Positions 950 through 62,870 of a stretch of DNA of 64,000 bases are shown piece by piece (positions within the stretch are counted from its first letter, which is position 1; every line of letters starts with the position of its first letter). Source of the DNA: Taeniopygia guttata. Lineage: Eukaryota. A model generated the notes under the pieces. The model did not search any database and was not told the DNA's origin. It saw only the letters and a program-made list of their open reading frames with translations. A program made the position numbers and the translations under genes. The stretch spans positions 4,727,324-4,791,323 of the forward strand of contig NC_133041.1 of NCBI RefSeq assembly GCF_048771995.1, read 5' to 3'.

Positions 950-1014
950 CGTCCTCCGCCGAGCTCTGGATAAAATCGCCGAGATCAAATCGCTGCTGGA
1001 GGAGCGGCGCATCG
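950..1014 (+). CDS. SGF29: SGF29 (SAGA complex associated factor 29) internal exon, first exon present in the window; encodes ...VLRRALDKIAEIKSLLEERRI
   Basis: Acceptor cctcag at 949, donor gtacgt at 1015. The translation matches the human SGF29 region ILRKALDKIAEIKSLLEERRIAAK. The 5' exons lie upstream of the window. Confidence 0.85.
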
Positions 1015-1174
1015 GTACGTCCGCTAGAGGGCGCTGCCACGCTGCCCTCACGGCGGCCAAAAAAGGCGGGAAACGCCTCAAACCCTTTCAAACCCCTCAA
1101 AATTCCGCCCAAACCCCTCAAATTTTTTAAAAAATTGTGTTATTTATAAAATTTTTTAAATTTTTAAATTCCAG

Positions 1175-1304
1175 CGGCCAAAATCGCCGGGATTTACAGC
1201 GAGGCGGAGCCGCCCAGGAAGACGATGAGGAGGGGGGTGCTGATGACGCTGCTGCAGCAGTCGGCCATGACGCTGCCGCTGTGGATCGGGAAACCCGGGG
1301 AAAA
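1175..1304 (+). CDS. SGF29: SGF29 exon; encodes AAKIAGIYSEAEPPRKTMRRGVLMTLLQQSAMTLPLWIGKPGEK
   Basis: Acceptor ttccag, donor gtgagg at 1305. Reading phase continues from the previous exon. Near-identical to human SGF29. Confidence 0.9.
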
Positions 1305-1305
1305 G

Positions 1306-2361
1306 TGAGGGGAAATGGGGAAAAAAAAAGGGAATTTTGGGAAATAATGAGGATTTTGGGAGGGTAAAGAGGGATTTGGGGGGAAAAAGTGAAAATTTGG
1401 GGGGGGGAAATGGAAATTTGGAAGAATAAGAGGGGATTTGGGGGTGCTGTGGATTAAGAAATGGGGGGAAAGTGATGAAAATGGGGGCAAATGGGGGGAA
1501 AAAGGGAATTTTTGGGGAATAATGAGGATTTTGGGAGGGTAAAGAGAGATTTGGGGGGGGAAAGTGGGAAATTGAAGGAAAAAAAGGGAGATTTGGGGGA
1601 CTAAAAGAGGATTTGGGAGTGCTGAGGATGCTGCTGCTGTGGGTTGGGAAACCTGAGGAAAAGTGAGGGGAAAAGGGGAAAAAAATGGGAATTTTTGGGA
1701 AAAATGAGGATATTGGGAGGGTAAAGAAGGATTTGGGGGTGGGGGGGAAGTGGGAAAAAAAGGAAATTTGGGTGAATAAAAGGGGATCTGGGGGTGCTGA
1801 GGATGCTGCTGCTGTGGGTTGGGAAACCTGAGGAAAAGTGAGGGGAAATGGGAAAAAAAAATTGGGAATTTTGGGGAAAAATGAGGATTTGGGAAGGGTA
1901 AAGAGGGATTTGGGGGGGAAAAGTGAAAATTTGGGGGAGGGAAATGGAAATTTGGGGGAATAAAAGGGGATTTGCGGGTGCTGTGGATTAAGAAATGGGG
2001 GGGGAAATGGGAAAAAATGGGAATTTTGGGGAAATTGGGGGGAATAAAAGAGGATTTGGGGGTGCTGTGGATTAAGAAATGGGGGGGGAAATGGGGGGGA
2101 AAAGGGAATTTTTGGGAATAAGGAGGATTTTGGGAGGGTAAAGAGGGATTTGGTGGGGGAAAGTGGGAATTTGGGGGGAAAAAAATTTCCCCCCCAAAAA
2201 ATCCCATTTTCTCCCCAAAAAATCCCATTCTTTCTCCAATTTCACCCCATTTTTTGCCCTAAAAAAATCACGTTTTCCCCCCCAATTTTCCCCCAATTTT
2301 CCCCCATAAAAACCCCAATTTCCCCCCAATTTTTTTCCCAAAAATCCCATTTTTTCCCCAG
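1306..2361. repeat. G-rich higher-order repeat of about 185 bp (gaaaagtgaggggaaatgggg...gggagggtaaagagggatttgggg) in an SGF29 intron
   Basis: The unit recurs at about 1310, 1490, 1680 and 1860. Confidence 0.85.
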
Positions 2362-2508
2362 GCCCCCGCCGCTGTGCGGGGCGGTGCCGGCGGCGGGCGA
2401 CTACGTGGCCAAGCCGGGGGACAAAGTGGCGGCGCGGGTGAAGGCGCTGGAGGGGGACGAGCAGTGGATCCTGGCCGAGGTGGTCAGCTACAGCCACGCC
2501 GCCAACAA
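2362..2508 (+). CDS. SGF29: SGF29 exon; encodes PPPLCGAVPAAGDYVAKPGDKVAARVKALEGDEQWILAEVVSYSHAAN
   Basis: Acceptor ccccag, donor GTgagc at 2509. Matches the SGF29 tandem Tudor region. Confidence 0.9.
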
Positions 2509-2510
2509 GT

Positions 2511-4600
2511 GAGCCACTGACCCAAAATACCGCGGTTTCGGCCCAAAATTACCTGCTCTGCACACAAAATTCCACTTCTGGGACCAAAATTCCCTTTTAT
2601 AGACCCAAAATTCGATTTTTGGGACCAAAATTCCCTTCTCTGGACCCCAAATCCCGGTTTTTGCACCCAAAATTCCCTTCTCTGGACACAAAATTCCGTT
2701 TTTTGGGACCAAAATTCCCTGCTCTGCACACAAAATTCTGTTTTTTGGGACCAAAATTACCTTCTCTGGACACAAAATTCAATTTTTGGGACCAAAATTC
2801 CCTTGTATAGACCCAAAATTCGATTTTTTGGCTCCAAAAATCTGCCTTTTTGGGATTAAAATTCCCTTTTATAGACCCAAAATTCGATTTTTTTGCCCTC
2901 AAAATTTAATTTTTTTTGGGAACAAAATTTACTTTTATAGACCCAAAATTCGATTTTTTACACCCAAAATTTCATTTTTTAGACCCAAAATTCCCTTTTA
3001 CAGGCACAAAATCGGACTTTCTGGGCCCAAAATTCCCTTTTATAGACCCAAAATTCGATTTTTTACACCCAAAATTTCATTTTTTTAGACCCAAAATTCC
3101 CTTTTACAGGCACAAAATCGGACTTTCTGGGCCCAAAATTCCCTTTTATAGGCACAAAATTGGGATTTTTTACACCCAAACTTCCTTTCTCTGGACACAA
3201 AATTCCGATTTTTGGGACCAAAATTCCCTACTCTAGACACAAAATTCCACTTTTTGGGACCAAAATTCAATTTTTTGGGCCCAAAATTCCCTTTTCTGAA
3301 CACAAAATTCCATTTTTGGCTCCAAAATCTGACTTTTTGGGATTAAAATTCCCTTTTATAGACCCGAAATTCGATTTTTTAGCTCCAAAATCTGATTTTT
3401 TGGGATTAAAATTCCCTTTTATAGACACAAAATTCGACTTTTTGGCTCCAAAATCTGAATTTTTGGGATTAAAATTCCTCTTTTTGTGTCCAAAATTCCC
3501 TTTTATAGGCACAAAATTTGGATTTTTTGGACCAAAATTTGCTTTTATAGACCCAAAGTTTCATTTTTTGGGCCCAAAATTCCTTTTTATAGGCACAAAA
3601 TTGGATTTTTTGGGCTCAAAATTGGATTTTTTTCCCCAGGTACGAGGTGGACGACATCGACGAGGAAGGCAAAGAGTGAGCAATGAAAAACCCCAAAAAT
3701 TTCATTTAAAATGCCCCAAAACCCCCTCAAACCACCCCAAAAAACCCCAAAATTTGCCCATAAAAATCCCATTTTCCCCCAATTTTCCCCCATAAAAATC
3801 CCAATTTTCCTTCATTTCCCCCCAGATTTTCCAACATAAAAATCACATTTTTTCCTTCCAAAAAAAATCCCAATTTCCCCGCATTTTACCCCCAAAAATC
3901 CTAATTTTCCCCCAACTACCCGCCCAAAAATGCCAAATTTCCCCCATAAAAATCCCAATTTTTCCCCAGTTACCCCCAAAATATTCCTCAAATTTTCCCC
4001 ATAAAACCCCCAAATTTTCCCCATAAAACCCCCAAATTTTCCCAAATTACTCCCAAAATATTCCTCAAATTTTCCCCATAAAACCCCCAAATTTTCCCAA
4101 AAAAATCCCAAATTTTCACAAAAAAAATCAAATTTCCCATTTCCCACCAAATTTTCCCCCCAAAAAATCAAATTTCCCCCCATTTCCCACCAAATTTTCC
4201 CCCCAAAAAATCAAATTTTCCCATTTCCCCCCAAATGTTGCCCAAATTTTCCCAATAAAACCCTCCAAATTTTCCCCCCAACAAATCAAATTTTTCCCCT
4301 ATTCCCCCCGCAAATTTTCCCCAATTTTTCCCCATAAAACCCCCCAAATTTTCCCCCCAAAAATCAAATTTTCCCCCCAAATTTTCCATATTTTTTCCCC
4401 AAAAAAATCAAATTTTTCCCTCATTTCCCTGCAATTCCCCCCCACTTTTCCCCCATAAAAATCACAATTTCCCCCCCATTTTTCCCCATAAAACCCCCAT
4501 TTTCCCGCTGTTTCTCACCAAATTTTCTGCGTATTTTCCCTATAACCCCCAATTTCTCCCCGATTTTCCCAAACCCGCCGTTTTTCGCCCCAAACCGCAG
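2511..4600. repeat. Two short-unit satellites filling SGF29 introns: a roughly 22-bp unit acccaaaattcccttttatag (2511-3639) and ccccataaaacccccaaattttcc (3676-4600)
   Basis: Direct periodicity. Confidence 0.85.
3640..3675 (+). CDS. SGF29: SGF29 36-nt exon; encodes (K)YEVDDIDEEGKE
   Basis: Acceptor ccccag at 3638-3639, donor gtgagc at 3676. The phase links the two flanking exons exactly. Confidence 0.85.
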
Positions 4601-4763
4601 GCGCCACACGCTGAGCCGCCGCCGCATCATCCCCCTGCCCCAGTGGAAAACCAACCCCGAGACCGACCCCGAGGCGCTGTTCCACAAGGAGCAGCTGGTG
4701 CTGGCGCTCTACCCGCAGACCACCTGCTTCTACCGCGCCCTCATCCACGCCCCGCCCCAGCGC
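4601..4763 (+). CDS. SGF29: SGF29 exon; encodes RHTLSRRRIIPLPQWKTNPETDPEALFHKEQLVLALYPQTTCFYRALIHAPPQR
   Basis: Acceptor ccgcag, donor gtgagt at 4764. Near-identical to the human SGF29 C-terminal Tudor domain. Confidence 0.92.
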
Positions 4764-4879
4764 GTGAGTCCCCGGCCCCCGAAATCCCCGTTTTGGGGAG
4801 AAAACCCCGAAAAAATCGGAGATTTGGGGCAAAAATAGCGCGAAAAATGAGAAATCTGCGTGCGGAAATGGGGGCGGCC

Positions 4880-5625
4880 ACTAGGGGGCGTTGTGTTGCT
4901 AGGGGGCGTGGCTTGTTGCTAGGGAAGCTAATACCATATAAGGAGTTGCTAAGGGGCGTGGCTTGTTGCTAAGGAGAGTCATTGCCATATAAGGTGGTTG
5001 CTAAGGGGCGTGGCTTGTTGCTAAGGAGAGTCATTGCCATATAAGGCGGTTGCTAAGGGGCGTGGCTTGTTGCTATGGTGAGTAATTGCCATTTAAGGCA
5101 GTTGCTAAGGGGCGTGGCTTGTTGCTAAGGAGAGCCATTGCCATATAAGGGGGTTGCTAAGGGGTGTGGCTTGTTGCTAAGGAGAGTCGTTGCTATATAA
5201 GGGGTTGCTAAGGGGCGTGGCTTGTTGCTAGGGAAGTTATTAGCATATAAGGGGGTTGCTAAGGGGCGTGGCCTGTTGCTAGGGAAGTTATTAGCATATA
5301 AGGGGTTGCTAAGGGGCGTGGTTTGTTGCTAAGGAGAGTCATTGCAATATTAGGTTGTTGCTAAGGGGCGTGGCTTGTTGCTAAGGAGAGCCATTGCCAT
5401 AAAAGGGGGTTGCTAAGGGGCGTGGCTTGTTGCTATGGAGAGTCATTGCCATATAAGGGGGTTGCTAAGGGGCGTGGCTTGTTGCTAGGGAAGCTAATGC
5501 CATATAAGGGGGTTGCTAAGGGGCGTGGCTTGTTGCTAAGGGGGTTGCTAAGGGGCGTGGCTTGTTGCTAGGGAAGCTAATAGCATATAAGAGGGTTGCT
5601 AAGGGGCATGGCTCATTTCTAATCC
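4880..5625. repeat. 60-bp tandem repeat of about 12 copies (gttgctaaggggcgtggcttgttgctaaggagagtcattgccatataagg) in the last SGF29 intron. Each unit carries a GC box GGGGCGTGGC
   Basis: Perfectly periodic. Confidence 0.9.
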
Positions 5626-5667
5626 ATATTTTTCCCCAAATTTTCAATTTTTTTCCCCAAATTTCAG

Positions 5668-5784
5668 CCCCAGGACGATTATTCGGTGCTGTTCGAGGAC
5701 ACCTCCTACGCCGACGGTTACTCCCCGCCCCTCAACGTCGCCCAGCGCTACGTGGTGGCCTGCAAAGAAACCAAAAAAAAGTGA
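5668..5784 (+). CDS. SGF29: SGF29 terminal coding exon; encodes PQDDYSVLFEDTSYADGYSPPLNVAQRYVVACKETKKK*
   Basis: Acceptor atttcag. TGA stop at 5782-5784. An AATAAA lies about 105 nt downstream at about 5889. Matches the human SGF29 C-terminus. Confidence 0.92.
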   Translation, partial: PQDDYSVLFEDTSYADGYSPPLNVAQRYVVACKETKKK

Positions 5785-6550
5785 AATTTTGGGCAAAACC
5801 ACCCAAAATTTGGGAAAAAACACCCAAAATTTAAGAAGACCAACCTGGAATTAGGTAGGGAGGGAAAAAACGGGATTTGGAAAGGGGAAAATAAAGGAAA
5901 ATTTGATTTATTGGGGGGAAAAAATAAAAGGGATTTTAGCATGGAAAAAATGTGGGGAAAATTGATTTTTTGGAGGGAAACCTGGGATTTTTATTGGGAG
6001 AAATTGGGAATTTTATAAAGAGAAAATTGGGAATTTTTGGGGGTAAAACTGGCAAATTCATGCGGGAAAAAAAAGATGTTTTTATGGGGAAAAAAATGAA
6101 GTTTTTATAAGGGAGAATTGAGGATTTCTTTGGGGAATGATTGGGATTTATTTGAGGTGGGAAAATTTGGGATTTTTATGGGAAATAATTAAGAAATTTT
6201 AGGGGTAAACGTGGGATTTTTGTGGTGAAAATTGACAAAAAAAGTCTGAAAATCTGTGAAAAAATATCCCAAAATTTTTTTGGGAGGGGTTGGAGGATGG
6301 GAAGATCCCAAAAAATTATTTTTCGGGGGAAAAAAGTTGCAAAAAATGTAAAATAAGTTGAAAAAAATGGGGGGAAAAATGGGATTTTTGGCTCTCAAAA
6401 TGGCGGCCAAAAGTGGGAGGGGCAAAAAGGGAAATGACGTCATGGGGCGTGGCCAAAAGTCACACCCCTTTAGTTATAATTAAACAATTTATTAATTAAA
6501 AGTTATTTTATTGTAAATAAATAATTTAAAATGCAATTGCGGGTGTGGTT

Positions 6551-6668
6551 TCACGTGGGGGCGGAGCTTGGGATGATGACATCATCAGGCTCCGCCCACT
6601 CCTCTTCAGGCTCCGCCTCTCCCAAGCAGCGACGAATCAGATCGCCCCAGAGGAGGTGGGTGTGGCAC
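6551..6668 (-). CDS. SLX1: SLX1 structure-specific endonuclease subunit, terminal coding exon; encodes (G)CHTHLLWGDLIRRCLGEAEPEEEWAEPDDVIIPSSAPT*
   Basis: Minus-strand acceptor ccccag (plus 6669-6671). The TGA stop is the reverse complement of tca at 6551-6553. Matches the human SLX1 C-terminus CCEKSLLWGDLIWLC. Minus-strand AATAAA signals sit at plus 6507-6512 and 6488-6493. Confidence 0.85.
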
Positions 6669-6744
6669 CTGGGGGCGGGGTCAGAGTCAGGACACACCAT
6701 CTTTGGACAAGCCCCGCCCCCTGGCAGCCATATTGAATATTTCC

Positions 6745-7260
6745 TTTATTAAATAAATGCAAATTAAAACAAGCCCTGCCCCCTGGCAGCCATATTGAAT
6801 ATTTTTTTATAAGGGGAATGCAAATTAAAACAAGCCCCGCCCCCTGGCAGCCATATTGAATATTTTTTTATAAGGGGAATGCAAATTAAAACAAGCCCCG
6901 CCCCCTGGCAGCCATATTGGAACATTTCCTTAGAAGGGAAATGCAAATTAAAATAAGTCCCACCCCCTGGCAGCCATCTTGAAATTTTTCCTGATAAAAC
7001 AAATAGGAATTAAAACAAGCCCTGCCCCCGGCAGCCATATTGAAATATTTCTTTATAAGAGAAATGCAAATTAAAACAAGCCCCACCCCCTGGCAGCCAT
7101 ATTGAAACCTTTCCTGATAAAACAAATAGGAATTAAAACAAGCCCCACCCCCTGGCAGCCATCTTGGAACGTTCCCTCATAAGGTAAAGCTCCTTAAAAA
7201 ACAAGCCCCGCCCCCTGGCAGCCATCTTGGATCCTTTCCTTAAAAGGAAAACCGCTCTAA
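6745..7260. repeat. 60-bp tandem repeat of about 8 copies carrying an octamer (ATGCAAAT), an Sp1 GC box (CCCCGCCCCC) and a YY1-like core (GGCAGCCATATTG/ATCTTGG), inside an SLX1 intron
   Basis: Unit aaacaagccccgccccctggcagccatattgaatatttctttataaggggaatgcaaattaaa. Confidence 0.9.
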
Positions 7261-7305
7261 ACAACAAGCTCCGCCCCCCAGCATTAAGCCCCGCCCCTTT
7301 TTTAC

Positions 7306-7436
7306 CCGGGACAGTTTCCCCCCACGGGCAGCAGCTGCAGCGGCTCCGGGGCCAGGAAGAGCCGGGCCAGGCACGGGGCGTGGGCGGCCATCTTGCACTG
7401 GGGGCGGGGACAGCGCAGAAGGGGCGTGGCCTGTTC
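7306..7436 (-). CDS. SLX1: SLX1 exon, second half of the RING/PHD-type zinc finger; encodes EQATPLLRCPRPQCKMAAHAPCLARLFLAPEPLQLLPVGGNCP(G)
   Basis: Minus acceptor gttttgatgttttcag, donor gtaaaa. Aligns to human SLX1 [40 protein letters not shown]. Confidence 0.85.
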
Positions 7437-7639
7437 CTGAAAACATCAAAACGCTGAAATTCCTGCTTGAACCGCATAAATTTGCATAAATTATGCATTT
7501 CAATGTGATTTAACTAGTTTTTAACCTCACAGCGATTTATTAACAGCACATCAGGCCCCTGCCCACACCCCAAATTTCCATATATTTGCGTTTTCATGCT
7601 CCAAAATTCATCAAATTTGTATTTTGTTCTCTTTAGTGA

Positions 7640-9900
7640 AGGCCACGCCCCTTTTAGACCACGCCCAACATTAAAAATTCCCCACCATCCTAATTAAACC
7701 TATTTTAACCCCTCCTCTTTTAATTAAAGCCCCTCCCATATTTAAGTGATTATATAAACCACACCCACTTAAGCCACACCCACCTCATTAAACTCATTTA
7801 AATATAAGCCACTCCCACTTTAACCCCCAATTGAGCCCCGCCCACCTCATTAAACCCATTTCAACCCCTCCCCTTTTAATTTAAGCCCCTCCCATATTTA
7901 AATGACCATATAAACCACACTTACCTAAGACACACCCACCTAATTAAACTCACTTATATTCAAGCCCCTCCCACTTTAACCCTCAATTTAGCCACGCCCA
8001 CCTCATTAAACCCAGTTCAACCCCTCCCCTTTAAATTTAAGCCCCTCCCATATTTAAATGACCACATAAGCCACACCCACCTCATTAAACTCATTTAAAT
8101 CTAAGCCCCTCCCACTTTCAAACCCCAATTTATTAAGCCCCGCCCACCTCATTAAACCCATTTAAACCCCTCCCCTTTTAATTCAAACTCCTCCCATATT
8201 CAAATGAGCACTTAAGCCCCGCCCCTTACCTCCCCACACAAGCCACACCCACCTCATTAAACTCATTTAAATGTAAGCCCCTCCCACTTTCAAACCCCAA
8301 TTTATTAAGCCCCACCCACCTCATTAAACCCAGTTCAACCCCTCCCCTTTCAATTCAAGCCCCTCCCACATGCAAATGAGCACTTAAGCCCCGCCCCTTA
8401 CCTCATTACACAAGCCACACCCCCCGCCCGTTTCCGCCATTTGGCTCCGCCCCTTTTTCCTTTTCAGGCGCGGTGGCCCCGCCCCCTCCTCCTGCACCAC
8501 GTGATTGGGCGGGGCCAGCTCGAGGGCGGGGCCCGGGGGGCGGAGCCAGCGAATCCGCAGCGGGAGGCGGGACCAGGGCGGGGCCCAAAGGAGGCGGGGC
8601 AGCACGCGGAGGGCGAAGCTGATTGGCTGCTCCCGCGGGCGGCGGGGGGGCGGGGCCAGGAGGCGGCGGGAGGAGTTGGGGTGTTGCCACGCCCACTCGA
8701 ACTGGAAAAGGGGCGGGGCTTAAGTGCTCATTTACATATGAGAGGGGTTTAACATAAAAGGGGTGGGGCTTAAGTGCTCATTTAAATATGGGAGGGGCTT
8801 ATGATAAAGGGGGCGGGGCTTAAGTGCTCATTTAAATATGGGGGGGCTTTTTATAAAAGGGGCAGGGCTTAAGTGATCATTTAAATATGGGAGGGGCTTA
8901 CGATAAAAGGGGCGGGGCTTAAGTGCTCATTTAAATATGGGAGGGGTTTATGATAAAAGGGGCAGGGCTTAAGTGCTCATTTAAATATGGGAGGGATGAT
9001 AAAAGGGGCGGGGCTTAAGTGGTCATTTGAATATGGGAAAGGCTTAAATTTAAAGGGGAGGGATTTAAATGGGTTTAATGAGGTGGGCGTGGCTAAATTG
9101 GGGATTGAAGTGGGAGGGGCTTAGATTTAAATGAGTTTAATGAGGTGGGTGTGGCTAAAGTGGGTGTGGCTTAAATCATCATTTAAATATGGGAGGGGCT
9201 CAAATTAAAAGGGGAGGGGTTAAACTGGGTTTAATGAGGTGGGCGGGGCTTAATTTGGGATTAAAAGTGGGAGGGGTTTACATTTAAATAAGTTTAATGA
9301 GGTGGGTGTGGCTAAAGTGGGTGTGGCTTATTTGGTCATTTAAATATGGGAGGGGCTTAAATTAAAAGGGGAGGGGTTGAAATGGGTTTAATGAGGTGGG
9401 TGGGGCTTAACTTGGAATTAAAAGTGGGAGTGGCTTACATTTAAATGAGTTTAATGAGGTGGGTGTGGCTTAAGTGGGTGTGGCTGATATGGTCATTTAA
9501 ATATGGGAGGGGCTTAAATTAAAAGGGGAGGGATTTAAATGCGTTTAATGAGGTGGGCGGGGCTTAATTGGGCTTAAAAGTGTGTGGGGCTTATATTTAA
9601 ATGAGTTTAATGAGGTGGGTGGGGCTTATGTGGGCGGGGTTAAAGTGGGAGGGGCTTACATTCAAATCAGTTTAACAATGTGGATGTGGCTTATATGGTA
9701 ATTTAAATATGGGAGGGGCTTAAATTAAAATAGGGGTTAAATGTGGTTTAATGAGGTGGGCGGGGCTTAAGAAATTAAGGGTAAAACTAGGAGGGGCTTA
9801 CATGTAAATTAGTTTAATGAGGTGGGTGTGGTTTAAGTGGGTGGGGTTGAAACTGGGAGGGGCTTAAAATACAATGGGAGGGGTTGATTGTTATTTAATG
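7640..9900. repeat. Satellite of about 130 bp (...aagcccctcccatatttaaatgagcacttaagccccgcccacctcattaaac...) present as two inverted arms: C-rich orientation at 7640-8440 and G-rich reverse complement at 8700-9900. The arms flank SLX1 exon 3 (8402-8701)
   Basis: The reverse complement of 8700-8740 matches 8190-8230, and the exon lies exactly between the arms. Confidence 0.85.
8402..8701 (-). CDS. SLX1: SLX1 300-nt exon; encodes FEWAWQHPNSSRRL...LRVLPRLLWAPPWSRLPLRIRWLRP...ETGGGCGLCNE
   Basis: Minus acceptor cttttccag, donor gtaagg. The motifs FEWAWQHP, APPW-RLPL-RW-RP and the C-x2-C pair match human SLX1. The middle part is poorly conserved, so the boundaries rest on the splice sites. Confidence 0.75.
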
Positions 9901-9934
9901 AGGTGGGCGGGGCTTAAAAGGGGGCGGGGCTCAC

Positions 9935-9986
9935 CCTGAGGGCGGCGACGTCGGAGGGGAAGCCGTGGACGAAAAGTTCCATTTCC
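9935..9986 (-). CDS. SLX1: SLX1 52-nt exon; encodes (W)EMELFVHGFPSDVAALR
   Basis: Minus acceptor ...cccccgaaaag, donor gtgagc. Matches human WEMVLVVHGFPSSVAALR. The phase links exon 1 to the 8402-8701 exon. Confidence 0.8.
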
Positions 9987-10585
9987 CTTTTCGGGGGACA
10001 AAATTGGTAAAATAAATTGATTTTTAAAATAATTAATAATTATTTAATAAAATTAATCAGAATTCCACATCGAAACCCTTTAAAACCCCCCAAATCTTCC
10101 CCAAAAATTCCCCACATTTGACTTTAATTTTCTTGAATTCCCCCAAAATCTCCCAAATATTTTTCAAATATCCCCAAATTTTTCCTGAACCCATCGGAAT
10201 GCCCCCAAAATATATTTTAAATCCTTTTAAATTCCCCCAAATTCCCCAATTAACCCCTTCAATCCCCCAAAATCCCCTTTTAACCCCCCCAAAATCCCCA
10301 TTTAATCCCTTTAAAGACCCCGAATCCCCCAAAATCCGCTTCTAAACCCCCCCAAATCCCCATTTATCCCTTTAAACCCCCCAAATCCCCATTTAACCCC
10401 TTCGAACCCCCCAAAACCCCCCAAAATCCCCTTTAAACCACCCAAAATCCCCTTCGAACCCCCCCAAATCCCTATTAATCCCTTTAAACCCCCCAAATAC
10501 CAATTTAATCCCTTCAAAATCCCCCAAATCCCCATTTAACCCCTTCAAACCCCCCAAATCCCCCCAAATCCCCCCAAACCCTGAC

Positions 10586-10758
10586 CAGGGCCCCCTCCCG
10601 CTGGTCTTTTTGGCCCCTCCGCCCCTCCGTCCCGCGTTGTGCTGCCGCAGCCGCCGCCGCGGGTCCACCGTGAACCCCACGTAGGCCGCGGAACCTCCGC
10701 CACGGGGGCCGCGGGCCCGGGGGGATCCGCGGGAGCGCAGCAGGTACACGGCGCGCAT
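10586..10758 (-). CDS. SLX1: SLX1 first coding exon (GIY-YIG nuclease domain); encodes [57 protein letters not shown](W)
   Basis: Minus ATG at plus 10756-10758, donor gtcagg. GIY-YIG motifs match human SLX1 (VYLL, YVGFT, QHN, SGRGPW). An in-frame upstream ATG at plus 10842 would add 28 aa that read through the promoter motif array, so the start codon is uncertain. Confidence 0.75.
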
Positions 10759-10789
10759 GGCGCCCACAATGCACCGCGGCGGGCGCCAC

Positions 10790-11230
10790 TTCCGCCCGCG
10801 CTCAACATGGCGGCGGTACGGCCTTGTTATCCCACAATCCATTGCGGGATTGTAGCTCCGCCTCTTTAAAATGGCGGCGGTACGGCCTAGCTATCCCACA
10901 ATCCATTGCGGGATTGTAGCTCCGCCTCTTTAAAATGGCGTCGGTTGTGTGCCTCCTTACCCACAATGCACCGCGGCACCACTTCCGCCCCCGCTCAAAA
11001 TGGCGGCGTTACGGCCTCGTTATCCCACAATCCATTGCGGAATTGTAGTTCCGCCTCTTCAAGATGGCGGCGGTTCAGTGTCTCGTTACCCACAATGCAC
11101 TGCGGCAGAATTGTAGTTTTATCTTTTAAAGATGGCGGCGGTTTGTGCCTCGTTACCCACAATGCACTGCGGCAGAATTGTAGTTTTATCTTTTAAAGAT
11201 GGCGGCGGTTTGTGCCTCGTTACCCACAAT
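10790..11230. promoter_or_regulatory. SLX1/BOLA2 bidirectional promoter core: about 7 tandem units of roughly 60 bp, each carrying a YY1 core (AAGATGGCGGCGG) and a ZNF143/SBS motif (for example AACTACAATTCTGCCGCAGTGCATTGTGGGTAA, read on the minus strand)
   Basis: The array lies between the SLX1 start (about 10758, minus) and the BOLA2 start (11571, plus). The ACTACAATTCCC...TGCATTG SBS consensus is recognisable in every unit, and AAGATGGCGGC is the YY1 consensus. Confidence 0.6.
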
Positions 11231-11549: not shown

Positions 11550-11570
11550 ACGCAGGGCCCCTGACCGGAA

Positions 11571-11636: not shown

Positions 11637-11649
11637 GTGCGTCATTAAT

Positions 11650-54330: not shown

Positions 54331-54485
54331 TGTTCCCGGGGGGTCCGGGGCTGTTCCGGTTGGTTCTGTGGCTCTCGGCCCCCCTGGCCGCCCTCAAATC
54401 CTTCCTGAACCTTCTGCAGCTGGGCGGGGCCCTGAGGGGCGTGGCCGCCCTGGACGCGGCCGAAAGGGCCCAAAAATCCTCCTGA
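54331..54485 (+). CDS. CDIPT: CDIPT terminal coding exon; encodes (V)FPGGPGLFRLVLWLSAPLAALKSFLNLLQLGGALRGVAALDAAERAQKSS*
   Basis: Acceptor ccccccgcag. TGA stop at 54483-54485. An AATAAA lies at 54658-54663. Matches human VGSVGLFRMGLWVTAPIALLKSLISVIHLITAARNMAALDAADRAKKK. Confidence 0.88.
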
Positions 54486-55663
54486 GCCCCTCCCCCACCC
54501 CCGCCCCTCCCCCACCGACCCCCCACCCCCACCAGGAACGGGGGAGGGGCAAAAATCCCCCCCCAAAACCCCCCAAAAATCCCCTCCCCCCACCCATGGG
54601 TGGGGTTTGGGGGCGTGGTCGTGTCAGGCCCCGCCCACTTTGGCACCGCCCACCGTGAATAAAGAGGATTTGGCCCCGCCCCCATCCCAAAGTGTGTGGA
54701 GTTTGTGGGGGGAGGGGCGGGTCCGCGGAAAATCCCGAAATTCCGACGGAAAATTCCAAAAATCGCACCGGAAAACCCCAAAATTCCGACAGAAAATCCC
54801 AAAATTCCGACAGAAAACCCCAAAATCCCAAATTCTTACAAAAACCCCAAAATTACAACAGAAATCCCAGATTCCAACCAAAATCCCAAAATTCCAAGGG
54901 AAAATCCCCAAATTCCAACAGAAAACCCAAAAATTCCGATGGAAAACCCCAAAATTCCAATCGAAAACCCCAAAATTCCACCTCAAAATTCCACCCCAAA
55001 AAATCCCAAATTCCAACAGAAAACCCCAAAATTCCGATGGAAAACCTCAAAATTTCAAGAGAAAATCCCCAAATTCCGCAAAAATCCCAAAATTCCGACG
55101 GAACTCCAAAATTGCACCGGAAAATACCAAAATTCCAACGGAAAATCCCAAAATTCCACCCCAAAATTCCACCCCAAAAAATCCCACAAATTCCAACAGA
55201 AAACCCCAAAATTCCACCCCAAAATCCCACATATTCCATCCCAAAACCCCAAAATTCCAACCAAAAAAGCCTCAAATTCCCGGAGTTTTTGGGGGTGAAA
55301 TTCCCAATTTTTTGGGCCAAGAATTCCCAGATTTTTTGCAGTAAAATCCCAAATTTTTTTGCATTCCCGGATTTTTTGCCATAAATTCCTGAATTTTTGG
55401 GGGAGAATTCCCGGATTTTTGTGGTAAATTCCCAAATTTTTGCTGTGATTTTCTGGATTTTTGGGGTGAAATCCCAGATATTTTTGCAGTAAAATCCCTT
55501 TTTTCCCCCCGTTTATTCCCCGGTTTTTTGCAATAAAATCCCGTATTTTTTGCAGTAAAATCCCAAATGTTTTTCCGTTTATTCCCGGATTTTTTGCCGT
55601 TCATTCCTGTATTTTTTGCCGTGAATTCCCGTATTTTTGGGGCGAATTCCCGGGATTTTGGGC

Positions 55664-55768
55664 TCACTCGCCCTCCTTGTCCTCGCCGTGGGTGATGACG
55701 TAACAAATGTTCTTGTAGTCGACGTTCCCGGCCACGTCCGGCGGGAAGGCGGCCCACATGTTCTTGAT
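55664..55768 (-). CDS. MYLPF: MYLPF (fast skeletal myosin regulatory light chain 2) terminal coding exon; encodes [34 protein letters not shown]
   Basis: Minus acceptor ttccag. The TGA stop is the reverse complement of plus 55664-55666. Minus-strand AATAAA signals (plus tttatt) sit at about 55578-55583 and 55512-55517. Identical to the chicken MLC2f C-terminus as I remember it. Confidence 0.92.
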
Positions 55769-56963
55769 CTGGAATTTCGGGAATTTCGGAAATTTTGGGA
55801 ATTTTGGGAGGAAATTCAGGGATTTTTAGGGATTTTTGGGGATTTTTGGGGGATTTTTTGGGGGATTTTTTAGGAATCTTGGGAGGATTTCTTTTAATTT
55901 TGGGGGGATTCTTGGGGCAAATTCACGCATTTGGGAGGATTTTTGGGGAATTTTGGGATTTTTGGGAAAATTTGGGAATTTTTGGGAGAAACTCCGAGAT
56001 TTTTGAGGGGTTTTTTGGAATTTTGGGGGATTTTTTTTTTTTGCAGATTTTGGAGAATTTGGGGAAATTTTGGGAATTCTTGGGGCGAGTTTGTGAATTT
56101 GGGAGGAATTTTGGGGAATTTTGGGATTTTTTGGGAAAATTTGGGAAAATTTGGGGTAATTCAGGGGTTTTTGAGGGATTTTTGGGACTTTTGGGGGATT
56201 TTTTTTTTATTTTTTGGGAATATTTTGGGGATTTTTTTTCTTTTTTATTTTGAAATTTTGGGAATTCTTGGGGCGAGTTTGTGAATTCGGGAGGATTTTT
56301 GGGATTTTTTGGGAAAATTTGGGGTAATTCAGGGGTTTTTGAGGGATTTTTGGGGAATTATGGGGGGATTTTTGGGATTTTGGGTTGATTTTGGGGTTTA
56401 TTAGTTGGAGGTATTTGGGGTGTATTTTGGGGCCGATTTTGGGGTTTTTTTGGGCCGATTTTGGGTTTTTTTGGGCCGATTTTGGGGTTTTTTGGTGGGA
56501 GTTTTTTGGGGGTTTTGGGGGGTCAAATTTGGGTGGTTTTAGGTGGATTTTGGGGCTGATTTGGGGGTTTTTTTTGGGCCGATTTTGGGTTTTTTTGGGT
56601 GAATTTTGGGGCCGATTTTGGGGATTTTTTGGGTGAATTTTGGGGCCAATTTTGGGGTTGTTTGGGCCGATTTTGGGGTTTTTTGATTGGAGTTTTTTGG
56701 GGTATTTTGGGGCCGATTTTGGGTATTTTTGGGTGAATTTTGTGGCCAATTTTTGGGGGTTTTTAGGTGGATTTTGTGGTCAATTTTGGGGCTTTTTAGG
56801 GTGGATTTTGGGGCGGATTTTGGGGATTTTGGGGCTGATTTTGGGGTTTTTTGGGCTGATTTTGGGGGTTTTTAGGTTGGAGTTTTTTGGGGTATTTTGG
56901 GCCGATTTTGGGGTTTTTTTGGGCTGATTTTGGGGTGGATTTTGGGGATTTTGGGGCTCTCAC

Positions 56964-57012
56964 CTCCTCGGGGGTGAAGCGGTCGCACTGCGTCGTCAGC
57001 AGCTCCTCCAGG
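56964..57012 (-). CDS. MYLPF: MYLPF exon 6; encodes (F)LEELLTTQCDRFTPEE
   Basis: Minus acceptor ccccccag, donor gtgaga. Phase is consistent with the flanking exons. Confidence 0.9.
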
Positions 57013-57859
57013 CTGGGGGGGGGAGGGGTCACCCCAAAATCTGCCCCTCCCCCACCCAAAATCCGCCCCCCCCCAATAAATTCCCTCCCCCACCCCCCAA
57101 AATCTGCCCCTCCCCCACCCCAATATTTTGGGGCAAATTTCAGGGATTTTGGGATATTTTGGGCAATATTTTGGGGTAAATTTTTGGAATTTATGGGAAT
57201 ATTTTGGGGTAAATTTCAGGGATTGTGGGGAAGATTTTGGGGAAGATTTTGGGAATATTTTGGGGTAAATTTTTGGAATTTTTGGGTAAAATTCAGGGAT
57301 TTTGGGGACAATATTGGGGAATATTTTCAGGCAATATTTTGGGGTAAATTTTTGGAATGTTGAGGAATATTTTGGGGTAAATTTCAGGGATTTTGGGGAA
57401 GATTTTGGGCAATATTTTGGGCAATATTGTGGTGTAAATTTTAGGGATTTTTGGGCAATATTTTGGTGTAAATTTTTGGAATTTTGGGGAATAATTTGGG
57501 GTAAATTCAGGGATTTTGGGGACAATATTGGGGAATATTTTCAGGCAATATTTTGGTGTAAATTTCAGGGATTTCGAGGAATATTTTGGGGTGAAATCCA
57601 GGGATTTTTGGGCAATATTTTGGGGTAAATTTTTGGAATTTTGGGGAATATTTTGGTGTAAATTTCAGGGATTTCAGGCAATATTTTGGGGTGAATTTCA
57701 GGAATTTTTGGGCAATATTTTGGGGTGAATTTCAGTGATTTCGGGCAATATTTTGGTGTAAATTTCAGGTATTTCGGGCAATATTTCTGGGATATTTCGG
57801 GGACTATTTTGGGGTGAATTTGGGATATTTGGGGTGCCCCCCGCCCCTCCCCCACTCAC

Positions 57860-57938
57860 AAACTCTTCTTGATCGATCCTTTCCCGTCCGGGTCCAGAAC
57901 CTTAAAGGCGCCCATGATGACGTCCTCGGGGTCCGCCC
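57860..57938 (-). CDS. MYLPF: MYLPF exon 5; encodes (G)ADPEDVIMGAFKVLDPDGKGSIKKS(F)
   Basis: Minus acceptor cattag, donor gtgagt. This is an EF-hand region of MLC2. Confidence 0.9.
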
Positions 57939-58533
57939 CTAATGGGCGGGGCCAGAAAGGGGGCGGGGTCAGAAAAAGGGGGCGGGGCCAAGGAGAGAGG
58001 GGATTTGGGGGGAATATTGGGGATTTTGGGGGGAATTTTGGGGATTTGGGGGAATATTGGGGATTTTGGGGGGAATTTTGGATATTTTGGGGGGAATATT
58101 GGAGATTTTGGGGATTTTTGGGAAAATTTGGGGGATTTTGGGGATTTTGAGGGCAATTTTGGGGGAATTTTGGAGATTTTGTGGGGGATTTTGGGAGAAT
58201 TTTGGGGGAAATTTGGACATTTTGGGGAGAATTTTGGGGACTTTGGGGTTAATTTTGGGGATTTTGGGGTGAATTTTGGGGACTTTGGGGGGAATTTTGG
58301 GGGGAATATTGGGGATTTTGGGGGGAATTTTAGGGATTTTGGGGGGAATTTAGGGATTTTGGGGGGATTTTGTGGGAATTTTGGGGATTTTGAGGTGAAT
58401 TTTGGGGATTTTTGGGGCCTTTTTTGCATCAAATTTTTAGTATTTCAGGGCGGATTTTCCCTCTGGATTTTTGGGTTGAATTTTGGGTATTTTGGGGGTG
58501 TTCAGGTCGGAATTTTGGGGGTTCCTCGCCCAC

Positions 58534-58638
58534 CCTTGAGCTTCTCCCCGAACATGGTGAGGAAGACGGTGAAGTTGATGGGCCCCGAGGCCTCTTTGAT
58601 CATCGCGTCCAACTCCTCGTTCTTCACGTTCAGCCGCC
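58534..58638 (-). CDS. MYLPF: MYLPF exon 4; encodes (G)[34 protein letters not shown](G)
   Basis: Minus acceptor ccccccag, donor gtgggc. Identical to vertebrate MLC2f. Confidence 0.92.
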
Positions 58639-59575
58639 CTGGGGGGGGCGGGGCCACATCGGGACACGCCCACCGGCCACACCCTCACAAGCCCCTCCCC
58701 CTCACTCAAAACCCCGCCCACTCCCGCCAATAAATTCACGCCACGCCCACTTTTGTGGCACCACACCCCTCTAAGCCACTCCCACCTCATTTAAATGCAC
58801 CACGCCCCTTCTTTAAGCCCCGCCCATTCACCCCACTAAGCCCCTCCCCTTTAAATTTAACCCTTTACGTCCTTCCCCTTCCTTTAACCCCTCTAAGCCC
58901 CTCCCCCTAAAAAGCTCCACCCATCTTTTAAGCCCCTCCCCTTTTCTTTAAGCCCCTCCCCTTTCCTTAAAGCCCCTCCCCTTTCCTTTAGGCCCCTCCC
59001 ATTTTCCTTTAAGCCCCTCCCCCTTCCTTTTAAGCCCCTCCCCTTTTATTTAAGCCCCTCCCCCTCATTAAATCCCCCTCATAACAAGCCCCGCCCATTT
59101 AACAAGCCCCTCCCCCTTTTTTGACCCCTCCAATTTAAGCCCCTCCCATTTTCCTTTAAGCCCCTCCCCTTTCCTTTAAGCCCCTCCCCCTTTATTTTAG
59201 GCCCCTCCCCTTTTATTTAAGCCCCTCCCCCTCATTAAATCCCCCTCATAACAAGCCCCTCCCCCTTTTTCAACCCCTCCCATTTAAGCCCCTCCCACTT
59301 TCATTTAAGCCCCTCCCCTTTCCTTTTAAGCCCCTCCCATTTCCTTTAAGCCCCTCCCACTTTCCTTTAGCCCCTCCCCTTTCCTTTAAGCCCCTCCCCT
59401 TCCCTTTAAGCCCCTCCCCTTTTCTTTAACCCCTTTCCTTTAAGCCCCGCCCCCTTTCCCATTCAAACCCCTCCCCTTAAGCCCCGCCCCTCATTTAGAA
59501 TGCAAATTTTCGGCCCCACGCCCACCCAAGCCACGCCCACCCGTGCCAGGCCCCGCCCCCTTTAGCCCCGCCCAC

Positions 59576-59651
59576 CCATGGCGGCGAAGGTCTCCCGCAG
59601 GTCATCCTTATCGATGATCCCGTCGCGGTTCTGATCGATCACCGTGAAGGC
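59576..59651 (-). CDS. MYLPF: MYLPF exon 3; encodes AFTVIDQNRDGIIDKDDLRETFAAM(G)
   Basis: Minus acceptor ccccccag, donor gtgggc. This is the Ca-binding EF-hand 1 (DQNRDGIIDKDD). Confidence 0.92.
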
Positions 59652-60764
59652 CTGGGGGGGTGGGGGAGGGGCGGGGGGCGTGGCCAAAGGGGGAGGGGCG
59701 TCAAGGCCACGCCCACCGCGAAATTTCGGTGAAAATTCCCAAAAAAACCCGGGAAAAATCGACGGAATTTTGGGGGTTTTGGGGGGTAAAATGCGCGAGG
59801 GAAGCTCCGCCCACTCCGCGCAAAGCTCCGCCCACTGAGTGCAAAGCTCCGCCCACTGAGCCCAAAGCTCCGCCCCCACCTCATTAAGCCCCTCCCCCAC
59901 CCATTTTTTCCCATTTTTCCGCCATTTTGGGGTCCGCGACCTTCGCCAATTTTGCCCCTCCCCCATTTTAAGCCCCTCCCCCACCTTTAGCCCCTCCCCT
60001 ACCTTTAGCCCATCCCCTTTTAGCCCCTCCCCCACCTCATTAAGCCCCTCCCCCACCTTTTATTTTCCCCATTTTTTCGCCATTTTGGGGTCCTCGACCT
60101 CCGCGATTTTTGCCCCTCCCCCATTTTAAGCCCCTCCCCCCTTTTAAGCCCCTCCCCCACATTAAGCCCCTCCCCTTTAAGCCCCTCCCCCACCTCATTA
60201 AGCCCCTCCCCCACCTTTTATTTTTCCCATTTTTTCGCCATTTTGGGGTCAGTGACCTCCACCATTTTTGCCCCTCCCCCATTTTAAGCCCCTCCCCCAT
60301 TTTAAGCCCCTCCCCCATTTTAAGCCCCTCCCCCACCTTCAGCCCCTCCCCCATTTTAGCCCCTCCCCCACCTTTTATTTTTCCCATTTTTCCGCCATTT
60401 TTGGGTCCTCGACCTTCGCCATTTTTGCCCCTCCCCCATTTTAAGCCCCTCCCCCATTTTAAGCCCCTCCCCCACCTTTAGCCCCTCCCCCATTTTAGCC
60501 CCTCCCCCACCTTTAATTTTTCCCATTTCTCCGCCATTTTGGGGTCCTCGACCTTCGCCATTTTTGCCCCTCCCCCCTTTTAGCCCCTCCCCCACCTCAT
60601 TAAGCCCCTCCCCCTCCCATTTTTTCCCATTTTTTTGCCATTTTGGGGTCCTCAACCGCCGCGTTTTTTGCCCCTCCCCCATTTTCAGCCCCTCCCCCAC
60701 CTCTGGCCCCTCCCCCCGCCCCTCCCCCACCCCCGCCCCTCCCCCACCCCCGCCCCTCCCCCAC

Positions 60765-60854
60765 CTCCTTGAACTCCTGGATCTGGGTCTGGTCGAACAT
60801 GGAGAAGACGTTGGAGCTGCCCTCGGCCGCGCGGCGCTTCGCCTTCTTGGGGGC
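60765..60854 (-). CDS. MYLPF: MYLPF exon 2; encodes [30 protein letters not shown]
   Basis: Minus acceptor gaatttcag, donor gtgggg. Contains the MLCK phosphorylation site ([11 protein letters not shown]). Confidence 0.92.
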
Positions 60855-62610
60855 CTGAAATTCGGGGGGGATTTGGGGCATTTTGGGGATTTTTGGGGAT
60901 TTTTGGGGAAATTTGGGGAATTCGGGAAATTTGGGGGATTTTTGGGGGGATAAAGGAAGATTTGGGGGGGATTTGGGGGGATTTTAGGGGGGATTTGGGG
61001 GGATTTTGGGGGAGATTTTGTGGCGGGGAAATTGGGGATTTTTGGAAGGATTTGGGGAATTTTTGGGGATTTTGGGAGGATTTTAGAGGATTTGGGATTA
61101 TTGGGGAATTTTGGGGGAATTTTGGATATTTTGGGGGATTTTTGGGAGGATAGGGGGATTTTGGGGAGATTTTGGGGATTTTGAGGGGATTTTGGGAGGA
61201 CTTTGGGGATTTTAGGGGGATTTAGGGGAAATTTGGGGGAATTTGGGGGAATTTGGGGGATTTTGGGGGATTTCGGGGGATTTAGGAAGATTTGACAGGG
61301 TTTTCGGGGAAATTTGGGGGATTTTAGGGGGATTTTGGGGGATTTTAGGGGATTTGGGGGGAATTTGGGGAATTTTATGGGGATTTTTGGAGGATTTTGG
61401 GGGATTTTTGAGGAATTTGAGGGAATTTTGGGAAGATTTTCGGGACTTTGAGGGGACTTAGGGGAATTTGGGGGAATTTTCAGGATTTTGGGGTATTTTG
61501 GGGGATTTGGGTTAATTTGGGGGGATTTAGGAAGATTTGAGGGGTTTTGGGGGGGATTTGGGGGATTTTTGTGGGGATTTTGGGAATTAGAGGGGATTTT
61601 GGGGATTTTGTGGTAATTTTGGGGGGATTTTGGGGGATTTGCAAAGATTTGAGGGATTAAAAATGGAAATTTTGTTGATTTTTTTGGGGCTATTTGGGCA
61701 TTTCTTTGGATTTTGGGGATTTTTTGGGGGGTCCTGCTTCAGATTTTTGGGATAAATTTCAGGGATTTTGGGGGATATTTTGGGGTGAATTTCAGGGATT
61801 TTGGGGAATATTTTGGGGTAAATTTCAGGTATTTTAGGGGAGATTTTTGGGGTCAATCCCGGGGATTTGGGGGAATATTTTGGGATAAATTTCTGTGATT
61901 TTTGGGGAATATTGTGGGGTAAATTTCAGGGATTTTCAGGGATATTTTTGGGGTAAATTTCAGGGATTTCGGGGATATTTTTGGGGTCAATCCCGCGGAT
62001 TTTGGGGGATATTTTTGGGGTCAATCCCGGGGATTTTGGGGTAAATTTCAGGGATTTCGGGGAATATTTTGGGGTAAATTTCCGGGATTTTGGGGGATAT
62101 TTTTGGGATAAATTTCCGGGATTTTAGGGAATATTTTTGGGGTCAATCCCGCGGATTTTGGGGAATATTTTTGGGGTCAATCCCGGGGATTTTGGGGGAT
62201 ATTTTTGGGGTCAATCCCGCGGATTTTGGGGAATATTTTGGGGTAAATTTCAGGTATTTTGGGGGATATTTTTGGGGTCAATCCCAGGGATTTTGGGGGA
62301 TATTTTGGGGTAAATTTCAGGGATTTCAGGGAATATTTTGGGGTAAATTTCCGGGATTTCGGGGAATATTTTGGGGTAAATTCCGGGGATTTTCAGGGAT
62401 ATTTTTGGGGTCAATCCCGCGGATTTTGGGGGATATTTTGGGGTAAATTTCCGGGATTTCGGGGAATATTTTGGGGTAAATTTCAGGGAATTTGGGGGAT
62501 ATTTTTGGGGTCAATCCCGCGGATTTTGGGGAATATTTTGGGGTCAATCCCGCGGATTTTGGGGGATATTTTTGGGGTCAATCCCGCGGATTTTGGGGTG
62601 CCCCCCTCAC

Positions 62611-62613
62611 CAT
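62611..62613 (-). CDS. MYLPF: MYLPF exon 1: the initiator ATG is the only coding triplet and is followed directly by the donor gtgagg. The 5'UTR probably runs to about plus 62655
   Basis: The minus strand reads ...gagagcggccATGgtgagggggg. The ATG-only first coding exon is the known MLC2 gene architecture. The exon 2 acceptor is in phase with it. Confidence 0.7.
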
Positions 62614-62870
62614 GGCCGCTCTCTCGTTCCTCTCCCGCCGCTTTCGGCTCCTCCCGGGGGGTTTCGGGGCCCCCGGGGGGATTTTTATGGCCCCGGGTGG
62701 GGGAGGGGCGGCCCCGAAATAGCCCCGGGACCCCCTCCCCCCCCGCCCCTCCCCCACCCCCCCAAAAAGGACCCCGGGGTTCCCTTAAAGGGGCAGAGGC
62801 CGAAAATAGAAACTCCCCCCGCCCCTCCCCCACCCTCCCCCCCAGCCCCTCCCCCACCCCGCAGCTGCCG
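62614..62870 (-). promoter_or_regulatory. MYLPF proximal promoter: TATA-like CATAAAAAT (plus 62681-62690), a CArG-like CCCTTTAAGGG (plus about 62783-62793) and an E-box CAGCTG (plus about 62857-62862)
   Basis: The motifs were read on the minus strand upstream of the ATG. The TATA-like box sits about 70 nt upstream of the ATG, which fits a TSS near 62655. The CArG and MEF2-like matches are imperfect. Confidence 0.4.

Follow-up and report, generated by a model that had tools for sequence, protein, structure and literature searches.

Six genes in a minisatellite-filled 64-kb segment of the zebra finch genome, very probably part of a dot microchromosome

The subject of this report is a stretch of 64 kb of zebra finch DNA, hereafter the window (Taeniopygia guttata, assembly GCF_048771995.1, contig NC_133041.1, positions 4,727,324 to 4,791,323 of the forward strand). 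It carries six genes in the order SGF29 (+), SLX1 (-), BOLA2 (+), SLC5A2 (+), CDIPT (+), and MYLPF, also called MYL11 (-). The exons are short, intact and very rich in GC at the third codon position, and all introns have canonical splice sites. The other DNA consists almost entirely of short, imperfect tandem arrays whose base period is about 10-11 bp. An earlier note, made from the letters of this DNA, had proposed these six identities as well as the order and orientation of the genes; both proposals are borne out by Pfam matches, protein comparisons and the gene models. The models were obtained by tblastn with protein sequences as guides, and the junctions were refined by GT (or GC)/AG signals and by the requirement of an open frame. 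The outcome is six spliced models with open reading frames in which 36 of 36 introns are of the GT-AG type. The human counterparts of all six genes are presumably located in 16p11.2. The genes are:

950..5784, + strand: SGF29, 218 codons of the 3' part; the 5' exons fall outside, before the start of the window, and the first exon in the window is counted from 950. Coding exons 950-1014, 1175-1304, 2362-2508, 3640-3675, 4601-4763, 5668-5784 (stop TGA)
6551..10758, - strand: SLX1, complete, 257 aa. Exons 10758-10586, 9986-9935, 8701-8402, 7436-7306, 6668-6551
11571..13879, + strand: BOLA2, complete, 88 aa. Exons 11571-11636, 12472-12566, 13774-13879
16733..41911, + strand: SLC5A2 (SGLT2-like), complete, 620 aa, 15 coding exons. 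Exons 1-8: 16733-16813, 19061-19132, 20174-20278, 20601-20660, 21671-21775, 23336-23441, 25015-25095, 26939-27138. Exons 9-15: 30162-30297, 31244-31351, 32841-32991, 34848-35016, 37151-37366, 40696-40795, 41739-41911
43177..54485, + strand: CDIPT, complete, 216 aa. Exons 43177-43219, 45415-45549, 48313-48466, 50457-50538, 51451-51532, 54331-54485
55664..62613, - strand: MYLPF/MYL11, complete, 168 aa, seven coding exons. Exons 62613-62611 (ATG only), 60854-60765, 59651-59576, 58638-58534, 57938-57860, 57012-56964, 55768-55664

SGF29 on the plus strand ends at 5784 and SLX1 on the minus strand at 6551, thus the two are tail-to-tail, 766 bp apart. The start codons of SLX1 (10758) and BOLA2 (11571) define a head-to-head pair with 812 bp between the ATGs. 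At the far end MYLPF converges on CDIPT, and in three of five MYLPF loci from other birds these two genes are likewise tail-to-tail.

All six models matched their expected Pfam families above the curated cut-offs. The SGF29 fragment matches SGF29_Tudor (PF07039, E=3.4e-40) over the full profile length. It comprises the C-terminal tandem Tudor domain and is about 94% identical to that of human SGF29 (PDB 3ME9). SLX1 has an N-terminal GIY-YIG domain (PF01541) and a C-terminal zinc-finger domain, SLX1_C (PF21202), both above cut-offs, and equals the zebra finch protein XP_041575474.2, named SLX1, in every residue. BOLA2 matches BolA (PF01722) and is identical to the zebra finch cDNA product ACH44360.1 / NP_001232174.1. 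Zebra finch proteins which equal or nearly equal it are listed by RefSeq and UniProt as 'bolA-like protein 2'. The Pfam match, these database names and the head-to-head arrangement with SLX1 point to orthology with BOLA2, and not with BOLA1 or BOLA3. SLC5A2 matches SSF (PF00474, E=7e-129) and is identical to zebra finch XP_072792561.1, named 'sodium/glucose cotransporter 2-like' in RefSeq. Compared with solved structures the best match is human SGLT2 with 857 bits, followed by SGLT1 with 775 and NIS with 79 bits; by bit score the protein is probably closer to SGLT2 than to SGLT1 or other members of SLC5. CDIPT matches CDP-OH_P_transf (PF01066) and is identical to zebra finch XP_041575514.2 (CDP-diacylglycerol--inositol 3-phosphatidyltransferase). 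The identity of the SLX1, BOLA2, SLC5A2 and CDIPT models with zebra finch proteins settles the avian origin which had been surmised from the letters; the DNA is that of zebra finch and not of chicken.

MYLPF matches EF-hand families of Pfam, and 168 of 168 residues agree with the chicken protein (MYL11_CHICK / NP_001185673.2), just as the earlier note had stated for chicken MLC2f. Chicken MYLPF protein and cDNA have presumably been known for decades, which is consistent with the entry AAA48980.1. The first coding exon of the gene (62611-62760 region, minus strand) supplies the ATG alone, which is directly followed by GTGAGG. A TATA-like CCATAAAAAT is located about 70 bp upstream of this ATG in GGGGAGGGG-rich sequence.

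Tandem repeats were detected with Tandem Repeats Finder (TRF); the coverage figures derive from arrays scoring at least 50. By this measure 81.4% of the 64 kb is under tandem arrays, and a dinucleotide-shuffled copy of the window, the control, has a coverage of 0%. At a score of at least 100 TRF returned 264 rows. Arrays cover 87.5% of the non-coding bases versus 5.7% of the coding bases. Coding sequence amounts to 4720 bp, i.e., 7.4% of the window or 7.6% of positions 950-62700, in agreement with the coding fraction of less than 10% estimated beforehand. The GC content of the window is 47-48% overall with sharp local swings, 69.6% in coding versus 46.4% in non-coding DNA, and the GC content of third codon positions (GC3) reaches 85-93% per gene. 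Exons measure 36-300 bp, except for the first coding exon of MYLPF with its ATG only. The description of the exons as short and very GC-rich was therefore correct. The repeat-free segments are short, most of them GC-rich, and their six-frame translation gave recognisable pieces of vertebrate proteins. Among the open frames of the non-repeat, non-coding segments none was coding-like, i.e., a seventh gene was not found, and an Rfam scan of the whole window at gathering thresholds gave no match.

The repeats can be summarized as a single feature:

1..64000, no strand: minisatellite matrix, 169 non-overlapping TRF arrays which fill introns and spacers

Median TRF coverage of the 36 introns is 0.915, and in 34 of them it is at least 0.6. 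The assertion that every intron and every intergenic space is filled with repeats is almost true, with some exceptions: the SGF29 intron 1015-1174 (160 bp) is repeat-free, and repeats make up 45% of BOLA2 intron 1 and 35% of the SGF29-SLX1 spacer. The 169 arrays have a median length of 89 bp, and the longest extends over 1706 bp. Repeat units span 10-434 bp with matches of 64-100%, i.e., these are imperfect tandem blocks clustered inside introns. A long homogeneous array of a single monomer, which in classical satellites extends over tens of kb or more of gene-poor sequence, is absent from the window; instead there are many motifs, along with six genes in 64 kb.

Repeats over 81% of the window might suggest that relic or decaying genes are here surrounded by classical satellite heterochromatin, and large heterochromatic blocks do occur on dot chromosomes. 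We consider this highly improbable. The arrays are heterogeneous and short, and the about six genes all have open frames. A MYLPF protein 100% identical to that of chicken and a BOLA2 which equals a cDNA product are not what one expects from decaying genes. Further, according to two recent zebra finch preprints, on the telomere-to-telomere (T2T) assembly (bioRxiv 10.1101/2025.10.14.682431) and on non-B DNA (bioRxiv 10.1101/2025.10.17.683159), minisatellites in introns belong for the most part to the euchromatic A compartment. The term 'satellite-saturated', used in the earlier note, thus overstates the case; we are dealing with short minisatellite arrays in gene-dense sequence.

The commonest TRF periods are 10, 21 and 11 bp. 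Self-similarity, determined as autocorrelation, has maxima at lags of 10, 20-21, 31, 42 and 62 bp, and the base period is about 10.4 bp. This corresponds to one helical turn of DNA and is common to unrelated repeat motifs of the non-coding part. Several motifs recur. Decamers and undecamers of the types ACTGGGAGGG, ACTGGTTTAT and ACTGGTCTCTA (ACTGG(G/T) type) are present in introns 1-9 of SLC5A2 and 1-5 of CDIPT, and at 62949-63997 beyond MYLPF. The types GGGGATTTT / CCCCAAAAT are found repeatedly in SGF29, MYLPF and intergenic spacers. The repeat families are accordingly not all distinct, contrary to what had been claimed. A count of array families by single-linkage clustering on common 11-mers proved unusable, because 117 of 169 arrays merged into one low-complexity group; all that follows from this outcome is that some motifs are shared.

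Two further observations concern repeats in and around SLC5A2. In its intron 5 an array of ACTGGGAGGG (21788-22318) is directly followed by its reverse complement (CCCTCCCAGT type, 22351-23318), and the two together make up a large imperfect inverted repeat. Directly upstream of the start codon at 16733, at 16235-16680, are GGGGTGGGGGAGGGG-type repeats with units of 21-127 bp which on the coding strand are potentially G-quadruplex-forming.

SLC5A2 also displays a different kind of repetition. When every coding exon was compared by BLAST with the window, and with the shuffled window as a control, 15 extra partial exon copies of 95-100% identity emerged. All are derived from SLC5A2, i.e., from exons 5, 8, 10, 12 and 13. 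Partial copies of coding exons from the other five genes were not found in the window, and the shuffled window contained 0 exon copies. The copies are:

21340..21599, + strand: intron 4, four copies of the exon 5 head (first 30 bp, with acceptor, 100%), starting at 21340, 21423, 21487 and 21570
27304-27346, 27619-27687, 28125-28193, + strand: intron 8, three copies of the exon 8 tail (last 43-69 bp, with GT donor)
31482..31839, + strand: intron 10, three copies of the exon 10 tail (last 36 bp, with donor), starting at 31482, 31648 and 31804
33869-33940, + strand: intron 11, one copy of the exon 12 head (first 72 bp, with acceptor, 100%)
36517-36578, + strand: intron 12, one copy of the exon 13 head (first 62 bp)
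38111-38188, 38681-38758, 39231-39308, + strand: intron 13, three copies of the exon 13 tail (last 78 bp, with donor, 100%)

In 15 of 15 cases the copy is on the same strand, resides in the adjoining intron, is flush with the exon border, and has its GT or AG intact. Since each copy retains its splice signal, SLC5A2 is endowed with nine decoy donors and six decoy acceptors. Exon 13 has four identical donors, exon 5 has five identical acceptors. The authentic exon can be recognised because it alone runs on into the rest of the exon, and the RefSeq protein agrees. This raises the question of how splicing singles out the true site when up to five near-identical ones are on offer. Exon edges with their splice sites form part of arrays in the adjoining introns, which shows that some of the arrays grew from local sequence.

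How does this compare with other birds? Five MYLPF loci from other bird assemblies, retrieved by exact protein look-up, were examined, among them chicken, wrentit and Vidua chalybeata; for SLC5A2 the loci of Molothrus aeneus, Motacilla alba and Camarhynchus parvulus were used. Tandem repeats make up 67-94% of the five MYLPF loci and 82-84% of the three SLC5A2 loci. The 10-mers of zebra finch MYLPF introns are shared most with the same intron in three passerine-like loci, i.e., L002 (from a close relative), wrentit (L004) and Vidua (L005), and this same-intron sharing amounts to a fraction of 0.11-0.38, relative to whichever 10-mer set is the smaller. Comparable values are reached in the cross-comparison of introns 4 and 6. 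Chicken and the fifth locus have next to no 10-mers in common with zebra finch. Intron 2 measures 1.1 kb in zebra finch versus 9.9 kb in chicken, where it is mostly (TGGCCCCCAT)n. Intron lengths which vary among individuals are held to be a mark of stuttering introns; the length differences observed in our comparison are those between species. By these comparisons the arrays of the window appear wholly unlike the chicken ones, yet related among passerines.

Some details of MYLPF may be added. On the sense strand (window 55769-60764) the repeats of introns 2-3 belong to the GGGGAGGGGCTTAAA type, those of introns 4-6 to the CCCCAAAATCCCC type. The chicken gene (contig JAENSK010000593.1, 1925-29248) is about 27 kb long and resides on an unplaced contig of 37 kb, 94% of which is tandem repeat; its intron 2 holds about 669 copies of (TGGCCCCCAT)n, and its motifs are unrelated to those of zebra finch. 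We take this contig to belong to assembly GRCg7b, judging by its accession.

In SLC5A2 identical exon edges are affected in different species. The exon 8 tail, with three copies in zebra finch, has two in Molothrus, seven in Motacilla and two in Camarhynchus. For Motacilla clean exon-edge matches only were counted, as one tblastn match extended into intronic repeats. Copies of the exon 10 tail are present in Motacilla and Camarhynchus also, and copies of the exon 13 head in Camarhynchus. The exon 11 tail is copied in Molothrus, Motacilla and Camarhynchus, not in zebra finch.

These comparisons bear on the suspicion that the tandem arrays are assembly artefacts, i.e., spurious expansions or mis-joined low-complexity long reads in place of real introns which are short and ordinary. 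Such regions are known to be hard to sequence, and the genes next to SLC5A2 differ in other passerine assemblies, possibly as a consequence of a mis-join in one of them. Even so, we regard an artefact as a very remote prospect. The same architecture is seen in eight independently assembled loci of other birds, orthologous MYLPF introns share 10-mers in an intron-specific manner in three passerine assemblies, and the same SLC5A2 edges are copied in four species. Every exon, junction and reading frame is intact. In chicken, array structure was confirmed with raw nanopore reads (PMC12954441).

The neighbourhood of SLC5A2 deserves a separate remark. In Motacilla alba the neighbours are SRCAP-like and BRE1B/RNF40-like genes, in the zebra finch window BOLA2 and CDIPT, and in Molothrus aeneus SLC5A2 faces a converging UVB_sens (RUS1-like) gene. 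The regions compared were L008 25464-28463, L009 1-3000 and 52800-55799, and window 13880-16732 and 41912-43176. In other passerines homology to the window stops about 200 bp beyond the SLC5A2 stop codon. The differing neighbours reflect either a rearrangement or a mis-join in one assembly.

Repeats of a promoter-like kind separate SLX1 and BOLA2:

10759..11570, no strand: SLX1/BOLA2 divergent promoter spacer, 812 bp, with an array at 10807-11241 and degenerate copies at 11360-11523

The array consists of tandem units of 64-67 bp. Of the 13 matches to the motif CCCACAAWBC in the window, 12 are in the spacer, against 3.3 expected by chance; these 12 are all on the plus strand. In addition the spacer contains five AARATGGCGDCGG motifs and several ACTTCCGCC motifs. 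We take these motifs to be candidate look-alikes of ZNF143 (SBS), YY1 and ETS sites; on this presumed likeness a housekeeping promoter cassette appears to have been multiplied. An exact 13-mer of this array, AAGATGGCGGCGG, occurs three times in CDIPT intron 2 (46899, 47464 and 48019, minus strand) at a spacing of about 560 bp. The tandemly multiplied bidirectional promoter of SLX1 and BOLA2 is a small addition to the published picture.

This published picture, from papers of the years 2023-2026, is already detailed. The chicken T2T paper defined dot chromosomes as GC-rich, repeat-rich and gene-dense. The intron architecture of chicken dot chromosomes was subsequently named 'sequence stuttering' or 'exon stuttering' (Genome Biol Evol 2026, PMC12954441): introns on dot chromosomes are mostly simple or tandem repeat, those on other chromosomes have a median coverage near zero. 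A total of 115 exon-stuttering genes is listed, including chicken SLC5A2 on chr38 (PMC12954441). The likeness to the window is close. In both, imperfect tandem blocks which have expanded locally make up nearly the whole of the introns, copies of exon parts together with the splice site stand flush with the border in the neighbouring intron, and SLC5A2 is affected. The differences are that we are concerned here with zebra finch, that MYLPF introns of passerines share motifs and SLC5A2 edges are copied in four passerines, and that the window also has a tandemly multiplied intergenic promoter.

For the zebra finch itself, the T2T preprint describes 11 dot chromosomes, 5.99 +/- 1.57 Mb in size, whose euchromatic introns contain minisatellites (bioRxiv 10.1101/2025.10.14.682431). 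According to its non-B DNA companion, tandem repeats occupy >70% of dot-chromosome introns; most of their units measure multiples of 10-11 bp, and there is an enrichment of A-phased repeats and G4 motifs (bioRxiv 10.1101/2025.10.17.683159). Species, gene density, GC-rich exons, the >70% repeat share of introns and the multiples of 10-11 bp all coincide with our findings. Compared with these two studies nothing of substance is different in the window, which is one example locus; an individual discussion of the six genes was not found in their accessible text.

On one point our data depart from the published view. Orthologous introns of related species are reported to carry differing, independently expanded repeats (PMC12954441). 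The intron-specific sharing of MYLPF motifs argues, to the contrary, that arrays may be older than the species splits. One may go further and ask whether the intronic and promoter minisatellites of songbird dot chromosomes are generally long-lived and tied to position, and are not recent expansions independent in each species. This proposal is tentative, and we hold it to be somewhat less probable than its opposite. It is derived from the copies of the exon 8 tail in four passerines and, in some of these, of the tail of exon 10 and the head of exon 13, from the same MYLPF motif type in zebra finch, L002, Vidua and wrentit, and from the multiplied promoter motif cassette. If true, the arrays would either last for tens of millions of years while turning over continually, or form anew at hot spots; in view of the phasing of about 10.4 bp they could be under structural constraint. 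The comparative additions proper, i.e., stuttering at common exon edges in four passerines and intron-specific conservation of motifs across passerines, are modest.

Structural constraint leads to the possibility that the arrays are maintained for a function and are not a neutral by-product. As helically phased bent DNA or as G-quadruplexes they could possibly affect recombination, chromatin organisation, splicing or promoter strength. The periodicity of about 10.4 bp across unrelated motifs would agree with this, as would motif types kept per intron across Passerida and the multiplied motifs between SLX1 and BOLA2; the authors of the non-B DNA study suggest roles in splicing or recombination (bioRxiv 10.1101/2025.10.17.683159). 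Nevertheless, we think a maintained function unlikely. In chicken, neither the motifs nor the lengths of the MYLPF introns resemble those of zebra finch, which is what turnover free of sequence constraint would produce. Furthermore, one transcription-factor motif, tested as an example, could be traced to composition: CArG-like CC(A/T)6GG sequences, tried as SRF sites, occur about fourfold over expectation and were rejected as a by-product of the A-tract/G-tract make-up of the repeats.

Compared with human 16p11.2 the protein families are the same, and human SLX1 and BOLA2 are presumably head-to-head as well. Gene order is different, and window introns are tandem arrays whereas human introns are unique sequence with transposons. 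The six genes of the window are within 62 kb; their human counterparts, we presume, are scattered across about 3 Mb and separated by many other genes. The genes which flank the orthologues in other birds include SRCAP, RNF40, RUS1, an SPNS1-like MFS gene and LAT. We assume that SRCAP, RNF40, RUS1, LAT and SPNS1 are human 16p11.2 genes, too.

The earlier note had likened the six genes to those long called missing in birds. Avian 'missing' or 'hidden' genes are GC-rich and reside in repeat-dense microchromosomal DNA which short-read assemblies missed (Hron 2015; Bornelov 2017, PMC5470226; Li 2022, PMC9021737). The comparison is apt for CDIPT, which is listed as 'Predicted absent in birds' and which chicken RNA-seq brought to light in 2017. 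In the texts searched, none of the remaining five turned up on such a list, and BOLA2 exists as a zebra finch cDNA (ACH44360). All six are assembled and annotated in the current zebra finch reference.

Taken together, the window is very probably a gene-dense segment, of the euchromatic type, of a zebra finch dot microchromosome; it harbors six ordinary functional genes and has an architecture typical of this class of chromosomes. The entries for SLX1, SLC5A2 and CDIPT in RefSeq are carried by one zebra finch record of 5,740,876 bp, and a copy of the MYLPF protein is present on a record of the same length. This size is within the 5.99 +/- 1.57 Mb reported for zebra finch dot chromosomes, chicken SLC5A2 is on chr38, and dot-chromosome introns of zebra finch are reported to be >70% tandem repeat, all of which fits a dot chromosome. 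The earlier proposal of a GC-rich, repeat-dense microchromosomal origin is supported by the same facts.

Several points weigh against this reading or limit it. The dot-chromosome assignment is indirect, being based on record size and on the location of the chicken orthologue. Our BOLA2 model differs in two residues (V56D, Q61K) from NP_001232174.2, the version on the 5.74-Mb record; thus the window may stem from another haplotype or assembly. The mismatch may be a haplotype difference or one between cDNA and genome. Moreover, 10-mers of the ACTGG(G/T) type are present in at least 14 introns of two genes, for which a strictly local origin alone is insufficient. Finally, the steps of slippage, gene conversion and GC-biased conversion in the mechanism given below are taken from the literature.

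How might such a segment have come about? Arrays would arise and turn over by local duplication, i.e., by replication slippage, unequal exchange or gene conversion. The setting would be a highly recombining, compact chromosome, as published under the heading of 'sequence stuttering'. Purifying selection would preserve the exons and the authentic splice sites, and GC-biased gene conversion would push third codon positions to their GC content of 85-93%.

The window thus typifies an architecture known from the literature. There is little novelty, since genes and phenomenon alike have already been described, and with the architecture published for chicken and zebra finch and the genes in RefSeq no new question is opened. 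Its value is that of a clean worked example: functional vertebrate genes in which introns and spacers consist almost entirely of helically phased minisatellites, complete with decoy splice sites. It also shows why such genes have for so long escaped the assemblies of bird genomes.

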